From assembly GCA_965204575.1 (NCBI GenBank), contig OZ241993.1:352001-416000 (forward strand): a stretch of DNA of 64,000 nt. The letters run 5' to 3'. Below, piece after piece: positions 44,483 to 59,878 of the stretch. The stretch's first letter is position 1; each line of letters begins with the position of its first letter. A model generated the notes under the pieces. That model did no database searches and was not told the DNA's origin. It saw nothing but the letters and a program-made list of their open reading frames with translations. This stretch comes from an uncultured candidatus Porisulfidus sp. (GTDB taxonomy: Bacteria > Pseudomonadota > Gammaproteobacteria > Poriferisulfidales > Poriferisulfidaceae). The translations under genes and the position numbers were made by a program.

Positions 44483-44973
44483 ACACGCTACTATGTTCGA
44501 GGATAGAGCAAATTCTACCTTAAATGGCGCTTCGCGGAGATTTCTTCTTTCCCCTCTGGCAGGTGCAACTCTTCGACGAGCTTCACCAGTTCATTCTGTG
44601 CCTCTCCTTTAGGAGGGCGCGCGTCATCGGTCATAACCGAGAGCACTCTTCATCAAGTCTTTCCATGGCCTTCTCTGAAGACCCCAAGAGCCGCAAGTAA
44701 GCCTGCGACCTTCGCGTATGAAGATATATCTTTATGAGGTTGCTTATGCTTTCAGACGGATAATGCACCTGGCAGAAGGCATCAACAAAAGATGTTTTCC
44801 ATTGTCCCTCCAGCCCAGCCTGATCGCGGTAGGAGTATGGCCGGATTGTTTTATCTTCAGTTTTCATGGTGAAGTCGCATAAAATCTCTCAGGCCGAAAC
44901 TTTTGAATGTTCAATGGTAGGGTTTGCGGGATAATACCACAGACTCAGTTAGATCTCAGCACACCAATCTATT

Positions 44974-46321
44974 GGCGCATCACGGTTTTGTGTGGAATAG
45001 AGGGTCAGGGATAATGCTTCCGCGTTTTAGTCTGGAGTGTGGTCTGATGGAAGCAGTGAACAAGTTTTGCGAGATGCTGATGTTTCTGCATCCGCCGTGG
45101 GAGGTGGTCTCGGTGTCCTGTCGGGAAGGAGGCGAGGATCGCAGCCCGGGGCGCGTCACGATCGAGTTGGCCTATCAGGCGAAGAGCCTGGTGCCGTGTC
45201 CGGAATGCGGGACCTTGTGCAAGCGGCACGACACGAAGGCGCGGGAGTGGCGGGACCTGGATTTGATGGGTTGGCGCACGACCTTGCGGGCCGAGGTGCC
45301 GCGGGCGAACTGCCCGGAGCACGGGATTCGGCAGATCGCGGTGCCGTGGGCGGAGTCCCACGGTCGTTTCACGATGCGCTTCGAGACGGAGGTGATCGAG
45401 GACCTGCTGGCGATGCCGCTGCGGGCGGTGGCGCAGAAGTGGGGGCTGAGCTGGCATCAGGCGGACGGCATCCGCTCGCGGGCGGTGCGGCGCGGATTGG
45501 CGCGACGCGGGCCGCAGGCACCGAAGCGGATCGGCATCGACGAGACCTCGTTCCAGAAGCGGCATGAATATGTCTCGATCGTGGTCGATCAGAAGCCGGC
45601 GTCCGGGCGCAAGGGGGTGGTGCTGTATGTGGGAGACCGCAAGGATCAGGCAGCGGTGGAGCCGTTTTTCAGAGAGTTGGGCGACGCCGCCTGCGCGCAG
45701 GTTGAGACGGCCGCGATGGATCTGGCGCCGGCCTACATCGCGGCGACCCTGAAGTACACCCAGGCCGACATCTGCATCGACCGCTTCCATGTGGTGAGCC
45801 TGCTCAACCAGGCGGTGGACCAGGTGCGCCGGGCGGAGCACAAGAGGTTGCTGGCGCAAGGCGATGCCCGCCTGGCGGGCACCCGTTTCGACTGGCTGAT
45901 GACCGAGGAGCGGATGGGCCCGGCCCGGCGCCAGCGTCTGGAAGCGTTACGCAAGGAGGACCTGAAGGTGGCCCGGGCCTGGATCCTGAAGGAACGGGCG
46001 GCGGAGATCTGGGCGTTGCGCGACCGGACCCTGGCCTACTACGCCTGGGAAGCCTGGCATCAGGCGGCGAAACGCTCGCGGCTGGCCCCGGTGATCAAGG
46101 CGGCGGAGACGATCTGGAAGCATGTGGAAGAGATCCTGAACGCCGCCGTGCTGGGCATCAGCAATGCCCTGTCGGAATCCATCAACGCGAAAGTGCAGTG
46201 GATCAAACGCCAAGCCTGCGGCTACCGCAGCCGCGAGCGCTTCCGTGAAGCCATCTACTTTCACTTGGGCGGACTCGACCTGTATCCGAGACCTCCGTTC
46301 CACACAATTCCGTGAAGACCC
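44974..46321 (+). mobile_element. ISL3-family insertion sequence
   Basis: Imperfect terminal IRs GGCGCATCACGGTTTTGTGTGGAA / GGGTCTTCACGGAATTGTGTGGAA; 8-bp target duplication AATCTATT at 44966-44973 and 46322-46329. Confidence 0.95.
45047..46315 (+). CDS. ISL3 transposase
   Basis: CPECG...CPEHG zinc finger, IGIDE, MD, DRFHV, SNALSESIN, GYRS. Confidence 0.95.
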   Translation: MEAVNKFCEMLMFLHPPWEVVSVSCREGGEDRSPGRVTIELAYQAKSLVPCPECGTLCKRHDTKAREWRDLDLMGWRTTLRAEVPRANCPEHGIRQIAVPWAESHGRFTMRFETEVIEDLLAMPLRAVAQKWGLSWHQADGIRSRAVRRGLARRGPQAPKRIGIDETSFQKRHEYVSIVVDQKPASGRKGVVLYVGDRKDQAAVEPFFRELGDAACAQVETAAMDLAPAYIAATLKYTQADICIDRFHVVSLLNQAVDQVRRAEHKRLLAQGDARLAGTRFDWLMTEERMGPARRQRLEALRKEDLKVARAWILKERAAEIWALRDRTLAYYAWEAWHQAAKRSRLAPVIKAAETIWKHVEEILNAAVLGISNALSESINAKVQWIKRQACGYRSRERFREAIYFHLGGLDLYPRPPFHTIP

Positions 46322-46388
46322 AATCTATTTAGCGGGGACACCTTAAAGGTACGGTAAAATTGCGCGTTCAGGGCGGGCTCACCGCCGT

Positions 46389-57008: not shown

Positions 57009-58088
57009 CTATGGTAGTGCATCCAGTGCGCGACAGTCCTCGGTATTCCAGCTGACCGGCGTCTCCTGGCCCACTTTCAGGTGCTCATGGCCTGCCGCGT
57101 TGGGCATCTTGACAATAAAATCGTCATGGCCCAGCACCCTCATGCGGCAACGGATGTGGTCGCCAAGGTAAATCAATTCCTCCACCACCGCATCGAACCG
57201 GTTTTCTCCTGCTTCGCCGATAAACACCCGCTCCGGACGGATCGACAACGTGGTCGGAGTGCCCATGCCACTGCAATTGACCGCCAAGGCCCGGCCGCGG
57301 CCGGAGTCTTCGATCGAGACCTCGGCCACGCCGTCGTGGACGCTTTCGACCCGGCCGTACAATCGGTTGTTCTCTCCGATGAAGCGCGCGACAAAAGCAG
57401 TCTCCGGGCATTCGTAGAGGGTTTCCGGGTCGGAATCCTGCTGGATGGAGCCATCCTTGAACACGGCGATCCGGGTCGACATGGTCAGGGCCTCGGATTG
57501 GTCGTGCGTCACATAGACGATGGTCACGCCCAACTGGTCGTGCAGATGCTTGATTTCGTACTGCATGTGCTCACGCAATTGACGGTCCAGTGCCCCCAAA
57601 GGCTCATCCATCAGCACCAGTTCCGGTCGGAACACCAAGGCGCGGGCTAACGCGGCGCGTTGCTGTTGCCCTCCCGACAGCTCGGACGGGCGGCGATTGC
57701 CGAACCGCCCCATCTCCACCATCTGCAATGCCTCGCGCACTCGCTCCTCGACCTCGGAGCGTCCCATCCGGCGCACTTGCAACGGGAATGCAAGATTCTC
57801 ATTGACCGTCATATGCGGGAACAGGGCGTAATTCTGGAATACCACGCCGATGCCCAGTTGGTGCGGAGGCACGGAATTCACCGGGCGGCCGTCGAGACGG
57901 ATCTCCCCATGCGTGACGGTCTCGAATCCAGCCAACATCATCAGGCTGGACGTCTTGCCCGAGCCGGACGGCCCGAGCAGGGTCATGAATTCACCGCGGG
58001 GGATGCTCAGGTTGAGGTTCGCAACCGCCAGAGTCTCACCGTCATAGCTTTTCTGAACCTGGTCGAACTCCACGAACGGGCGCATCAT
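57009..58088 (-). CDS. Polyamine-type ABC ATPase (PotA-like)
   Basis: GPSGSGKT, VFQNYALFPHM, LSGGQQQR, MDEPL, YVTHDQ; ATG overlaps the tnpB stop. Confidence 0.93.
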   Translation of the reverse strand: MMRPFVEFDQVQKSYDGETLAVANLNLSIPRGEFMTLLGPSGSGKTSSLMMLAGFETVTHGEIRLDGRPVNSVPPHQLGIGVVFQNYALFPHMTVNENLAFPLQVRRMGRSEVEERVREALQMVEMGRFGNRRPSELSGGQQQRAALARALVFRPELVLMDEPLGALDRQLREHMQYEIKHLHDQLGVTIVYVTHDQSEALTMSTRIAVFKDGSIQQDSDPETLYECPETAFVARFIGENNRLYGRVESVHDGVAEVSIEDSGRGRALAVNCSGMGTPTTLSIRPERVFIGEAGENRFDAVVEELIYLGDHIRCRMRVLGHDDFIVKMPNAAGHEHLKVGQETPVSWNTEDCRALDALP

Positions 58089-58235
58089 AATGTGTGGAAA
58101 TCGGGGGGTGAGCCCCGGTAATTCCACGACATCGTTGACGGATCACTGACGGTGTCCACTAGGCATTCCATGAAGAATGCCCCCGCTTCGTTGTCCTCTC
58201 CCCGTCCCGTCACCGGAGCGCCTCCGGCCAGGAGC
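58085..58235 (-). ncRNA. Putative omegaRNA scaffold overlapping the tnpB 3' end
   Basis: Terminal stem ATGT-GTGGAA/TTCCAC-ACAT, GACGG/CCGTC pairing and GATCCGTCAA motif matching element 1. Confidence 0.6.
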
Positions 58236-59488
58236 CTGTTCAATCCCAGGTCCAGGATGTTTCGCGCGGCATTGATGTCCGCGTTGTCCATGTGTCCGCA
58301 GGCCAGGCACTTGAAGTGCGCCTGCTCCTTTCGGTTGTCTTTGTCCACGTGCCCGCACTCCGCGCACGCCCGGCTGGTGTTCCGCGCTGGCACCCTGATG
58401 AGGTCCATCGCCTTGTACTGCAGGAAGCGGTTCATCAGCCCCATGCATGCCTTCTGCGCCAGCTTCCGGTTCAGCCCCGACTTCGCGTTCACGTGTCGCC
58501 CCGGCTTCTCTTTCGTGCCCCGAGCCGACTTCATCATGGCCTTCACGTCCAGGTCCTCCAGCACAATGTGCTGAAAGTTCTGTGCCAGCCAAGCCGAGGC
58601 GTGGTGGCTAAAGTCCTGACGCACCCCGGCCGCCTTGCGTTTCGCCTTCGCCGCACGCTGCTGCAACCGCAGCCGCCGGTTCGAGGCCACCTTGACCACC
58701 CGGCCCGACTTCGTGCGCACCGCCTCCCCGTTGGCACCCTTCAACTCGAGTAACTTCCGATGGCTCGCCCGCCACTGGTAATGCCGGGCCCGTGACTCGT
58801 GCTTCTCAATCAATTCATGTGGAATCAGGATGATCTTTCTTCCCCCGGCCCACGAAATGGCAATGTTTTCGGTATTACGGTCGACTCCGCATACTCCGCC
58901 ATGCCAGCGCCAGTCCGGGTCTTCCACCTCCCACAGCACCGACACGTACCACTTGTCTCCTTCCTGGTACACCACCGCGGTCCGCGCTTCGCCATCGCCC
59001 CAAGGATCAACGCCCCGCGTCCGCGACTGGGCCTTGCGGTTCATTCGCACCCAGCCCACCTTCGGAACCCGCAGACGCTTGTTCTGCACCTTCACGTCAT
59101 CCGGGATCGTGAACGACTCCCGGCTGATGCCCTTGACCTTGAAGCGTGGCGGCCCGGCTTCCTTCCCGCGCTTGCCTTCCCGGAGCCGTCGGCGAAAATG
59201 GGAGAAAGCGACCCCCAAGGAAAACGCGCCCGAGCTGCGCACGATAGGACAAGACAACTCTCGCAGCCACTCGTTGCCTTCCTGCGCCTTCAGTTGGATG
59301 AACCGCCTCCCGAATTCAAACGGGAAAGCCCCTGGCTTCTCCCTCTCGCCGGCCTTGAACCGCTTGTATTCTCGCTTTTGCTCGGCCAGCAACTCGTTGT
59401 AGACGAACCGGGCGGCTCCGCACAACCGGGCGAACTGGCGCTCCTGCGTCTGGTTCGGATACAGACGGTAGCGGGAGGCTCGGTGCAT
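58085..59488 (-). CDS. tnpB: TnpB RNA-guided endonuclease (IS200/IS605 family)
   Basis: YRLYPN; RuvC D (CGVDRN), E (VLEDL), D (NADINAA); zinc finger CAEC...CLAC. Confidence 0.93.
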   Translation of the reverse strand: MHRASRYRLYPNQTQERQFARLCGAARFVYNELLAEQKREYKRFKAGEREKPGAFPFEFGRRFIQLKAQEGNEWLRELSCPIVRSSGAFSLGVAFSHFRRRLREGKRGKEAGPPRFKVKGISRESFTIPDDVKVQNKRLRVPKVGWVRMNRKAQSRTRGVDPWGDGEARTAVVYQEGDKWYVSVLWEVEDPDWRWHGGVCGVDRNTENIAISWAGGRKIILIPHELIEKHESRARHYQWRASHRKLLELKGANGEAVRTKSGRVVKVASNRRLRLQQRAAKAKRKAAGVRQDFSHHASAWLAQNFQHIVLEDLDVKAMMKSARGTKEKPGRHVNAKSGLNRKLAQKACMGLMNRFLQYKAMDLIRVPARNTSRACAECGHVDKDNRKEQAHFKCLACGHMDNADINAARNILDLGLNRLLAGGAPVTGRGEDNEAGAFFMECLVDTVSDPSTMSWNYRGSPPDFHTL

Positions 59489-59878
59489 GATGGACCTACT
59501 CTAGCACGGGTGTTTCACACGAAATCTTTAAGCCCCTACGAACGCAGTATCCGTCATGATCGGCACTCCCGATGCCGGCAAACCCCTCTCGGTTTCGTCC
59601 CGCGGGTGCCGGAGAGAACACTCCCCTGCTTCAATCTCGCGGCAACCCGCAGTCCGAGGAAAACGATACGTTTTATTGTACATAGATGCGAAGCAGGCAA
59701 AGCCTAGGGTGGCGTCCGACAGCCCCCGGTCGTCATAAAACATTCATCTCTTATTTTTATGCTCCTGTCATGCGCATCCGCGAATCTAGCCACCAAGAAG
59801 TCCGGGACCCAGGGGCAAAGGGCCGTATGTTTCCTGATTAAAAGGTCAGGGCTTTCGCTTTTGACCCGCATGGCTCGG

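Follow-up and report, generated by a model that had tools for sequence, protein, structure and literature searches.

How can a mobile element occupy the very start of a housekeeping gene without silencing it, and what machinery put it there? Both questions are raised by a 64,000-nucleotide stretch of DNA (the window) from an uncultured candidatus Porisulfidus sp., in which a gene for the RNA-guided nuclease TnpB, a compact genome-editing tool and evolutionary forerunner of Cas12, lies between potA, encoding a transporter-type ATPase, and the Shine-Dalgarno sequence and ATG that potA originally used. What is understood of TnpB comes from IS605 and IS607 elements, whose excision leaves no scar. 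The tnpB cassette at this locus (59536-58079, minus strand; hereafter W) very probably belongs elsewhere, as an ISL3-family insertion-sequence cassette that lacks a transposase gene and has tnpB in its place, and the interrupted potA looks, by its sequence, functional after the insertion. The source genome (G000) is a single 1.82-Mb contig, 98.75% complete.

Results

The start of potA is split in one genome and intact in its relatives

From its domains and neighbours, the interrupted gene is assigned to the PotA class (spermidine/putrescine ABC ATPases): an ABC_tran domain is combined with a C-terminal TOBE domain, and downstream, where SBP_bac_8 is matched, lie two solute-binding-protein genes. 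The product is 94.6-97.7% identical in amino-acid sequence to nine orthologues, and the other PotA-like ATPases of the source genome are 36-37% identical. The tnpB frame (59488-58085, minus) cuts potA off from its native signals, which are stranded upstream of W as GGGAG, eight nucleotides and an ATG at 59557-59555, an arrangement found identically (GGGAG-N8-ATG) in uninterrupted loci of relatives. After six native codons the stranded frame runs into W, reading MTDTAFVGA before a stop at 59530-59528.

The potA orthologue is present at 11 loci of the genus, none of them interrupted. Nine of these read gggagt..ATGACGGATACYGCRTTYGTNGARTTCGAC, with a single copy of the target, and translate to MTDTAFVEFDQ; the two others, more distant, have different N-termini. 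An earlier note on this DNA had described the stranded GGGAG-N8-ATG start, its MTDTAFV peptide with an early stop and a replacement ATG overlapping the tnpB stop in frame with potA, all of which are present in the sequence, and its claim that the element splits the potA start agrees with the 11 uninterrupted loci. It had also offered two reconstructions of the ancestral gene. Since the empty allele encodes MTDTAFVEF (nine of the 11 loci), the reconstruction through CGTTCGT is right and the one through ATGA, which made MMRPFVEF ancestral, is wrong. Contigs from public sequencing runs of two studies cross the junctions of W, and no empty-site joint across W was seen in the DNA contigs of the four runs compared; the best junction-crossing contigs may come from the window's own source, so that support from them is not independent.

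Upstream of the potA start (window 59571-59700, minus strand) lies a leader of about 90 nt that is nearly identical in the nine closest relatives and that may be regulatory; a window-wide Rfam scan at gathering thresholds found no match in it.

Table 1. Coordinates of the features discussed, as positions in the window
Feature	Position	Strand	Remarks
Native potA Shine-Dalgarno GGGAG	59570-59566	-	stranded upstream of W
Stranded potA start	59557-59528	-	ATG and six native codons run into W
CTG 5' of left target duplication	59547-59545	-	TAM-like position
Left copy of 8-bp target duplication, CGTTCGTA	59544-59537	-	single occurrence in empty sites
Left terminal inverted repeat, GGGGCTTAAAGATTTCGTGTGAAAC	59536-59512	-	nearest to ISL3 right-end repeat (IRR)
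tnpB	59488-58085	-	467 aa; RuvC D203/E311/D404 and CxxC..CxxC motif intact
Nucleotide-conserved block, putative omega-RNA scaffold	58229-58079	-	inside and beyond tnpB 3' end, to the tip
Right terminal inverted repeat, ...TTTCCACACATTATGATGCGCC	58103-58079	-	nearest to ISL3 left-end repeat (IRL)
ATG-ATG replacement potA start	58088-58083	-	overlapped by tnpB TGA, 58087-58085
potA-like ABC ATPase	58088-57009	-	ABC_tran and TOBE_2; 359 aa from new ATG
Right copy of 8-bp target duplication, CGTTCGTG	58078-58071	-	
Autonomous ISL3 insertion sequence, 1,348 bp	44974-46321	+	transposase 45047-46315; inverted repeats match W
ISL3 8-bp duplication, AATCTATT	44966-44973 and 46322-46329		perfect
Second tnpB cassette	11562-10141	-	different family, 39% amino-acid identity; on glyQ-stop/glyS-start overlap
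Second cassette duplication, AATAACTG / AATGACCG	11570-11563 / 10140-10133	-	

The ends of the cassette match an autonomous ISL3 element in the same window

Six full-length cassettes are present in the source genome, the five others being 79-81% identical to W. When the six copies were aligned together with their flanks, homology was confined to the stretch between two mutually inverted sequences of about 25 bp, directly outside of which each copy has its own short direct repeats. The cassettes so delimited measure 1,458-1,459 bp, and the limits of W fall slightly inside the span 58072-59570 of the earlier note, whose repeated CGTTCGT is part of W's 8-bp target duplication. The two copies of this duplication differ at one base (A versus G), at a synonymous site that is polymorphic among relatives. 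A repeated ATGA was rejected as a structural mark: one of the two belongs to the host, the other to the right inverted repeat, which in W holds both the tnpB stop and the new potA start.

A fuzzy search with the cassette repeat located an autonomous ISL3 insertion sequence 12 kb from W. This element occurs in three identical copies in the genome, all with perfect 8-bp duplications, and its transposase carries the domains DDE_Tnp_ISL3 (PF01610), Zn_ribbon_ISL3 (PF14690) and HTH_Tnp_ISL3 (PF13542). The consensus of the cassette right repeat, GGCGCTTCACGATTTTGTGTGGAA, compares with the ISL3 IRL, GGCGCATCACGGTTTTGTGTGGAA, and the left repeat with the IRR, such that the cassettes have ISL3-like terminal inverted repeats. 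Profile searches of the source genome, with positive controls, gave no matches to Y1_Tnp (PF01797), to Resolvase (PF00239), or to DDE_Tnp_1 and rve; it does contain three transposase genes of ISL3 type and a broken gene of IS1595 type. A weak PF01610 match at genome position 793189 proved to be a desaturase-like open reading frame (ORF) and not a transposase.

Among the 16 genomes of the genus, nine contain copies of the cassette, and both ends could be defined for 24 copies. Twenty of these are flanked by 8-bp duplications with six to eight matching positions (8/8 in 10 copies, 7/8 in eight and 6/8 in two), the duplication being absent in the remaining four; the ISL3 copies have perfect duplications in all three cases in G000 and in one in G007. 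The tnpB frame stops short of the right tip by 6-24 nt in 23 of the 24 copies. No insertion site is common to two genomes, and cassettes within one genome are about 20% diverged, compared with 6-11% for housekeeping genes of sister genomes; together these values indicate turnover from a diverse pool and not old insertions passed on vertically. In genome G009, four sites carry near-identical copies of one subfamily, a sign of recent movement.

The source genome also holds sequences with cassette ends and no gene between them. A 40-bp palindrome of two repeat tips, with nothing in between, lies at genome 624981-625020, and a solo right repeat as well as left- and right-end remnants of the tnpB cassette are found at 965303-965327, 1295708-1295755 and 1563883-1563930. 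These are decay products or minimal derivatives of the element.

Most cassettes lie in sense orientation just upstream of gene starts

We scored ORFs by codon usage, with Pfam checks on ten downstream genes, and could place 21 of the 24 insertion sites relative to host genes (L047, L056 and L057 were left out). At 16 of the 21, a gene on the same strand as the cassette starts within -25 to +150 nt of the right tip; three of the remaining sites have a sense start further off, and two lie between convergent genes. Four null models (uniform placement; non-coding DNA only; an A/T-rich 8-mer preceded by G; and these last two restrictions together) give an expected fraction of 0.07-0.18 for the gene-start class, so that the observed count is highly improbable by chance (binomial p <= 7e-9), as is that for the source genome on its own (6/6; p <= 3e-5). 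The preference for sense-oriented positions at translation starts, which the earlier note had suggested from two cases, is thus found far above expectation throughout the genus. By our reading of the position table, the cassette is in sense orientation in seven cases and antisense in none where its neighbours are co-directional. The genes downstream include cysS, tsaD, coaBC, ftsK, purL, thiE and ilvA. Replication orientation was rejected as the cause of the sense bias, three of six copies being co-oriented with replication.

Probable replacement starts at potA and nadB

The right inverted repeat of W contains two consecutive candidate start codons, ATG at 58088-86 and ATG at 58085-83, which read MMRPFVEFDQVQK in frame into potA. 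Among the 24 copies, W alone has ATG at the codon that overlaps the tnpB stop, where the others have GTG, GCG, CTG, CCG or GTA, and W alone has ATG at the next codon, which elsewhere is AAG. Downstream, the 359-codon potA frame is intact and has accumulated six synonymous and one non-synonymous private changes; the corresponding counts in uninterrupted orthologues range from 8:0 to 11:6.

A second case of this kind is nadB, an L-aspartate-oxidase-like gene. Copy c6 (L006, genome 1158419-1159877) inserted into TGGTTGCA, a target whose first base is base two of the nadB GTG start; the empty site, aattGTGGTTGCAGAC, is present in 6 of the 10 relatives' loci examined. Insertion turned the native GTG into CTG, leaving as the sole canonical start upstream of the flavin adenine dinucleotide-binding fold an in-frame GTG in the right repeat (GTG AAG CGC CTG GTT...), which overlaps the tnpB TGA. 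This copy later lost 8 nt at its left junction, including the tip of the left repeat, a deletion that explains its absent duplication and that probably renders it immobile now.

TnpB is conserved as a protein, and its gene ends in an RNA-like block

Alignment to solved TnpBs, together with its domains, RuvC D-E-D triad and zinc ribbon, identifies the encoded protein as a TnpB; the Pfam profiles HTH_OrfB_IS605 and Cas12f1-like_TNB score above their cut-offs, and OrfB_IS605 reaches 24.9 bits, below its cut-off of 30.5. In 12 of 12 TnpB sequences the catalytic residues D203, E311 and D404 are invariant, as are the zinc-ribbon cysteines, and the three codon positions of tnpB are conserved at 88%, 90% and 74%. 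By this pattern TnpB is under protein-level constraint, and it looks functional.

Near-invariant, the last ~150 nt before the right tip exceed the coding region in conservation, whichever of its three codon positions is compared. This block contains one hairpin with compensatory substitutions between subfamilies, and RNAalifold additionally predicts pairing between AGCGC at the repeat tip and GCGCU further inside, in a helix that never varies and hence is without covariation support. Single-sequence folding of the block was no better than that of shuffled sequences (z = 0.74), and Rfam returned only two tRNAs at gathering thresholds across the window and nothing at E<=1 within 58040-58400. A scan of 57900-59800 for sigma-70 promoters and terminators gave no promoter-like site and one terminator-like site, versus 1.8 expected. 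At two other places in the genome (775985-776059, L009; 1028845-1028925, L014) the RNA-like block occurs without any tnpB, each time between direct repeats of about 20 nt (ACACGGTTGACAG..GCA); these stand-alone blocks may be orphan guide-RNA modules.

TnpBs of at least 74% identity occur only in the source genus and a few metagenome contigs. When 51 distant relatives (23-30% identity) were tested for flanking inverted repeats, only about five exceeded shuffled sequences. Among the latter is a TnpB of 30% identity on a contig of a Caldilineaceae metagenome-assembled genome (L079:1417-2754); the 28-bp inverted repeats at its two sides, GGGGGACTATATACGATTTCACACCGGG, match perfectly, and no duplication is visible.

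A one-sided CTG lies outside the target duplication

Directly 5' of the left duplication, W has a CTG in the position where a transposon-associated motif (TAM) would lie if the guide began at the repeat tip. We counted the flanks of 23 copies, leaving out L043, whose left junction is unclear, and including c6 by its inferred junction. Of these 23, 22 have G at position -9 counted from the left tip (p = 6e-11, the G fraction of the genome being 0.30), 15 have T at -10 and 13 have C at -11; on the right side, the mirrored position holds C in only 7 of 23. The flanks of autonomous ISL3 elements have G in 5 of 12 cases on the equivalent side and in 0 of 5 on the other, and differ from those of the cassettes in Fisher tests (p = 0.0008 and p = 1e-5).

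These counts leave room for the tentative idea, for which we see less than an even chance, that the TnpB lineage re-fitted the homing logic of IS605, taking its guide from the repeat tip and using the outside CTG (YKG) as TAM. The guide-RNA scaffold would then extend to the right repeat tip, and the guide may comprise the right copy of the duplication and its flank. Only the empty site would offer both a TAM and a full match, as the left junction would match over 8 nt only and the repeat tip, GCC, would sit in the TAM position at the right junction. Copies next to CTG may on this account have been restored or driven by TnpB cutting, such that G appears in 22 of 23 surviving insertions, and a tnpB frame that ends in the repeat may serve as a harmless extra first cistron before essential genes.

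Other tnpB cassettes of the window and genome

The second tnpB cassette of the window has inverted repeats (GGGGGTATATCC.../...TATAAGGCCC) unlike those of W and sits exactly on the overlap of the glyQ TGA and the glyS ATG, where nine of nine relatives have an empty site. Its 8-bp duplication, AATGACCG, gives glyQ and glyS each their own copy of the signal; the left copy has drifted to AATAACTG and is still a stop, and only 5 nt separate the tnpB stop from the tip. The source contig (G000:C1) carries another seven tnpB genes, of families C-F, at 65.6, 261.5, 435.8, 443.5, 520.6, 834.3 and 1618.3 kb; their terminal inverted repeats are long (GGGAATTATGTATGAAAGTTGACA type), and several have 8-bp repeats. 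The broken IS1595-family transposase gene (1081541-1082425) carries an end similar to theirs. Every tnpB in the source genome thus appears, from these ends, to ride between termini of DDE type.

Discussion

W was most likely moved in trans by a DDE transposase of ISL3 type, for which the gene 12 kb away is a candidate. Its point of entry, as the empty sites show, was CGTTCGTR (codons 5-8 of potA), and it lies there in sense. From the original ribosome-binding site and ATG a nine-residue stub would now be made, and transcription from the pot promoter probably runs on through tnpB. PotA itself would probably be made by termination and reinitiation at the ATG-ATG of the right repeat, through the ATGA overlap, and its N-terminus would then have changed from MTDTA to MMRP; the reading frame, the intact ORF and the pattern of substitutions point this way. 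A tnpB frame that ends 6-24 nt from the tip, combined with A/T-rich 8-bp targets, would allow copies to survive before housekeeping genes in the sense orientation only.

Several observations weigh against parts of this account. The similarity of the ends is the sole link between W and mobilisation in trans by the window's ISL3 element, whose copies are identical and recent, in contrast to the diverged cassettes that share no site between genomes. W has no close relative (the best is 82% identical), so a change to ATG-ATG after insertion cannot be proven, and the ISL3 IRL, GTGATGCGCC, is similar at the second ATG. The new potA ATG is not preceded by a Shine-Dalgarno sequence, and an in-frame GTG at 58127 is a possible alternative start. 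Because the insertion is not dated on the G000 branch, the 6:1 count tests constraint weakly, and the gene calls that underlie the random model of cassette positions are crude (1,511 ORF-based genes).

How the cassettes move and whether potA survived can each be explained differently. The model of the earlier note, with a Y1 or serine TnpA as mobiliser and ATRA-type junctions that favour start/stop overlaps, would make W an IS200/IS605- or IS607-type element, and some facts fit: tnpB bears Pfam domains named after IS605 OrfB, and both window elements are on junctions containing ATG and TGA, the second being in sense orientation, as the note had said, on the glyQ TGA/glyS ATG junction. For the ends this model is refuted by terminal inverted repeats, by variable 8-bp duplications and by the presence in the window of a matching ISL3 transposase; the genome has neither of the transposases it calls for, and the duplicated 8-mers, variable and A/T-rich, share no ATRA motif, the apparent ATRA junctions being, as the glyQ/glyS case illustrates, by-products of the 8-bp duplication. 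We consider that there is next to no chance of its being correct. Alternatively, W may have knocked out potA, its in-frame ATG-ATG being a coincidence and its decay pending. An in-frame fusion would arise by chance in one of three insertions, the new start has no Shine-Dalgarno sequence before it, and the genome encodes other PotA-like ATPases; yet the long frame has stayed intact with mostly synonymous private changes even though 1 of 16 duplicated bases has diverged, which indicates that the insertion is not brand new. Moreover, W is the one copy with ATG at both codons, nadB, which has no other start, shows the same solution, and insertions before cysS, glyS, tsaD and coaBC must allow expression. 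A knock-out is accordingly improbable in our judgement.

Both the CTG and the bias towards gene starts could result from target choice by the DDE transposase combined with purifying selection, with TnpB playing no part in persistence, and we rate the chances of this as about even. ISL3-type elements prefer A/T-rich 8-mers, the ISL3 flanks of one relative have G in 4 of 7 cases, and the transposase that moved the old cassettes may differ from the one sampled; its target preference is at least as likely a cause of the CTG as a guide and TAM. On the other hand, DDE target preferences are usually symmetric, whereas the mark beside the cassettes is confined to the left side and is significantly rarer beside the ISL3 copies. 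It has also to be asked whether the tnpB copies are domesticated, nuclease-independent regulators of the downstream genes, akin to TldR. Copies fixed in sense before housekeeping genes, and the probably immobile c6 without one repeat tip, would suit such a role, but neither the RuvC triad nor the zinc-finger cysteines vary, the majority of copies retain the two inverted repeats along with their duplications, and the G009 subfamily moved recently, all of which makes domestication very unlikely.

With these alternatives weighed, the locus provides a natural, multi-copy case of an ISL3-type tnpB cassette, with an autonomous partner beside it and empty sites in sister genomes, and reveals a mobile element inside the starts of housekeeping genes that does not kill them, in a small genome of 1.8 Mb. 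It yields specific predictions: a CTG TAM outside a variable duplication, a guide that begins at the repeat tip, and host translation coupled to the tnpB stop.

Comparison with known systems

TnpBs associated with DDE transposases form a known class. In the sections of their article used here, Altae-Tran et al. (2023, PNAS, PMC10691335) report six branches of DDE-associated TnpBs that have inverted terminal repeats, as well as solo tnpB genes whose ends resemble those of transposase-bearing elements, from which mobilisation in trans was suggested. As in those branches, tnpB lies here inside inverted terminal repeats, with its 3' end within 250 bp of the transposon end. The same sections name IS630 only, and ISL3 occurs in a supplement only as the name of a profile; unlike the cases they cover, the present one has the cassette and its autonomous partner as two distinct elements of the same window, a tnpB frame whose end falls within the repeat, and a CTG on one side only, external to an 8-bp duplication of variable sequence. 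A 2026 review (PMC13565253), in the parts used here, lists ISL2, IS630 and IS1031 as DDE-linked TnpBs, and argues that such links are rare in prokaryotes because of a less flexible target recognition. The pairing of ISL3 with TnpB was not found among the titles and abstract openings of a literature search, and is not named in the text of those parts of either article.

W shares with the IS1341 group of the IS200/IS605 family (for which ISDra2 and IS608 are the models) a TnpB with an intact RuvC domain and a conserved RNA-like block at the right end. According to the same portions of PMC13565253, the IS200/IS605 and IS607 families are without terminal inverted repeats or target-site duplications, and IS200/IS605 elements insert 3' of a fixed motif of 4-5 nt by means of a Y1 TnpA. 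W, with terminal inverted repeats, an 8-bp target-site duplication and no Y1 gene in its genome, differs in each respect and falls outside the IS1341 group. The eukaryotic DDE transposons that carry Fanzor, a TnpB homologue, come closer in joining an RNA-guided nuclease to a duplication-making transposon with the guide RNA at its right end. In Fanzor elements, as far as the cited parts of PMC13565253 describe them, the duplication is a fixed TA or TTAA, whose 5' copy belongs to the TAM and whose 3' copy belongs to the scaffold; the variable duplication of W-type cassettes can belong to neither, and their conserved mark lies outside it.

The ends of W are most like those of ISL3 insertion sequences and their miniature inverted-repeat transposable elements (MITEs), in which repeats of about 25 bp begin with GG and flank A/T-rich 8-bp duplications. 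As among the non-autonomous derivatives of ISL3, gene-less relatives occur here too, in the form of the 40-bp palindrome and the solo ends. Passenger-bearing elements are known in the ISL3 family, ISPpu12 being an example. The cargo of W is a nuclease gene and a guide-RNA-like module, where ISL3 elements and their derivatives have metal-resistance passengers or nothing. Finally, the overlap of the tnpB TGA with ATG in W, or with GTG in most copies, is like the stop/start coupling of bacterial operons (ATGA, GTGA), except that the signal is carried by the inverted repeat of a mobile element and replaces the host gene's own start. What is specific to the present case, within a class already known, are the pairing with ISL3, the position of the stop codon within the repeat, the replacement starts and the one-sided CTG.

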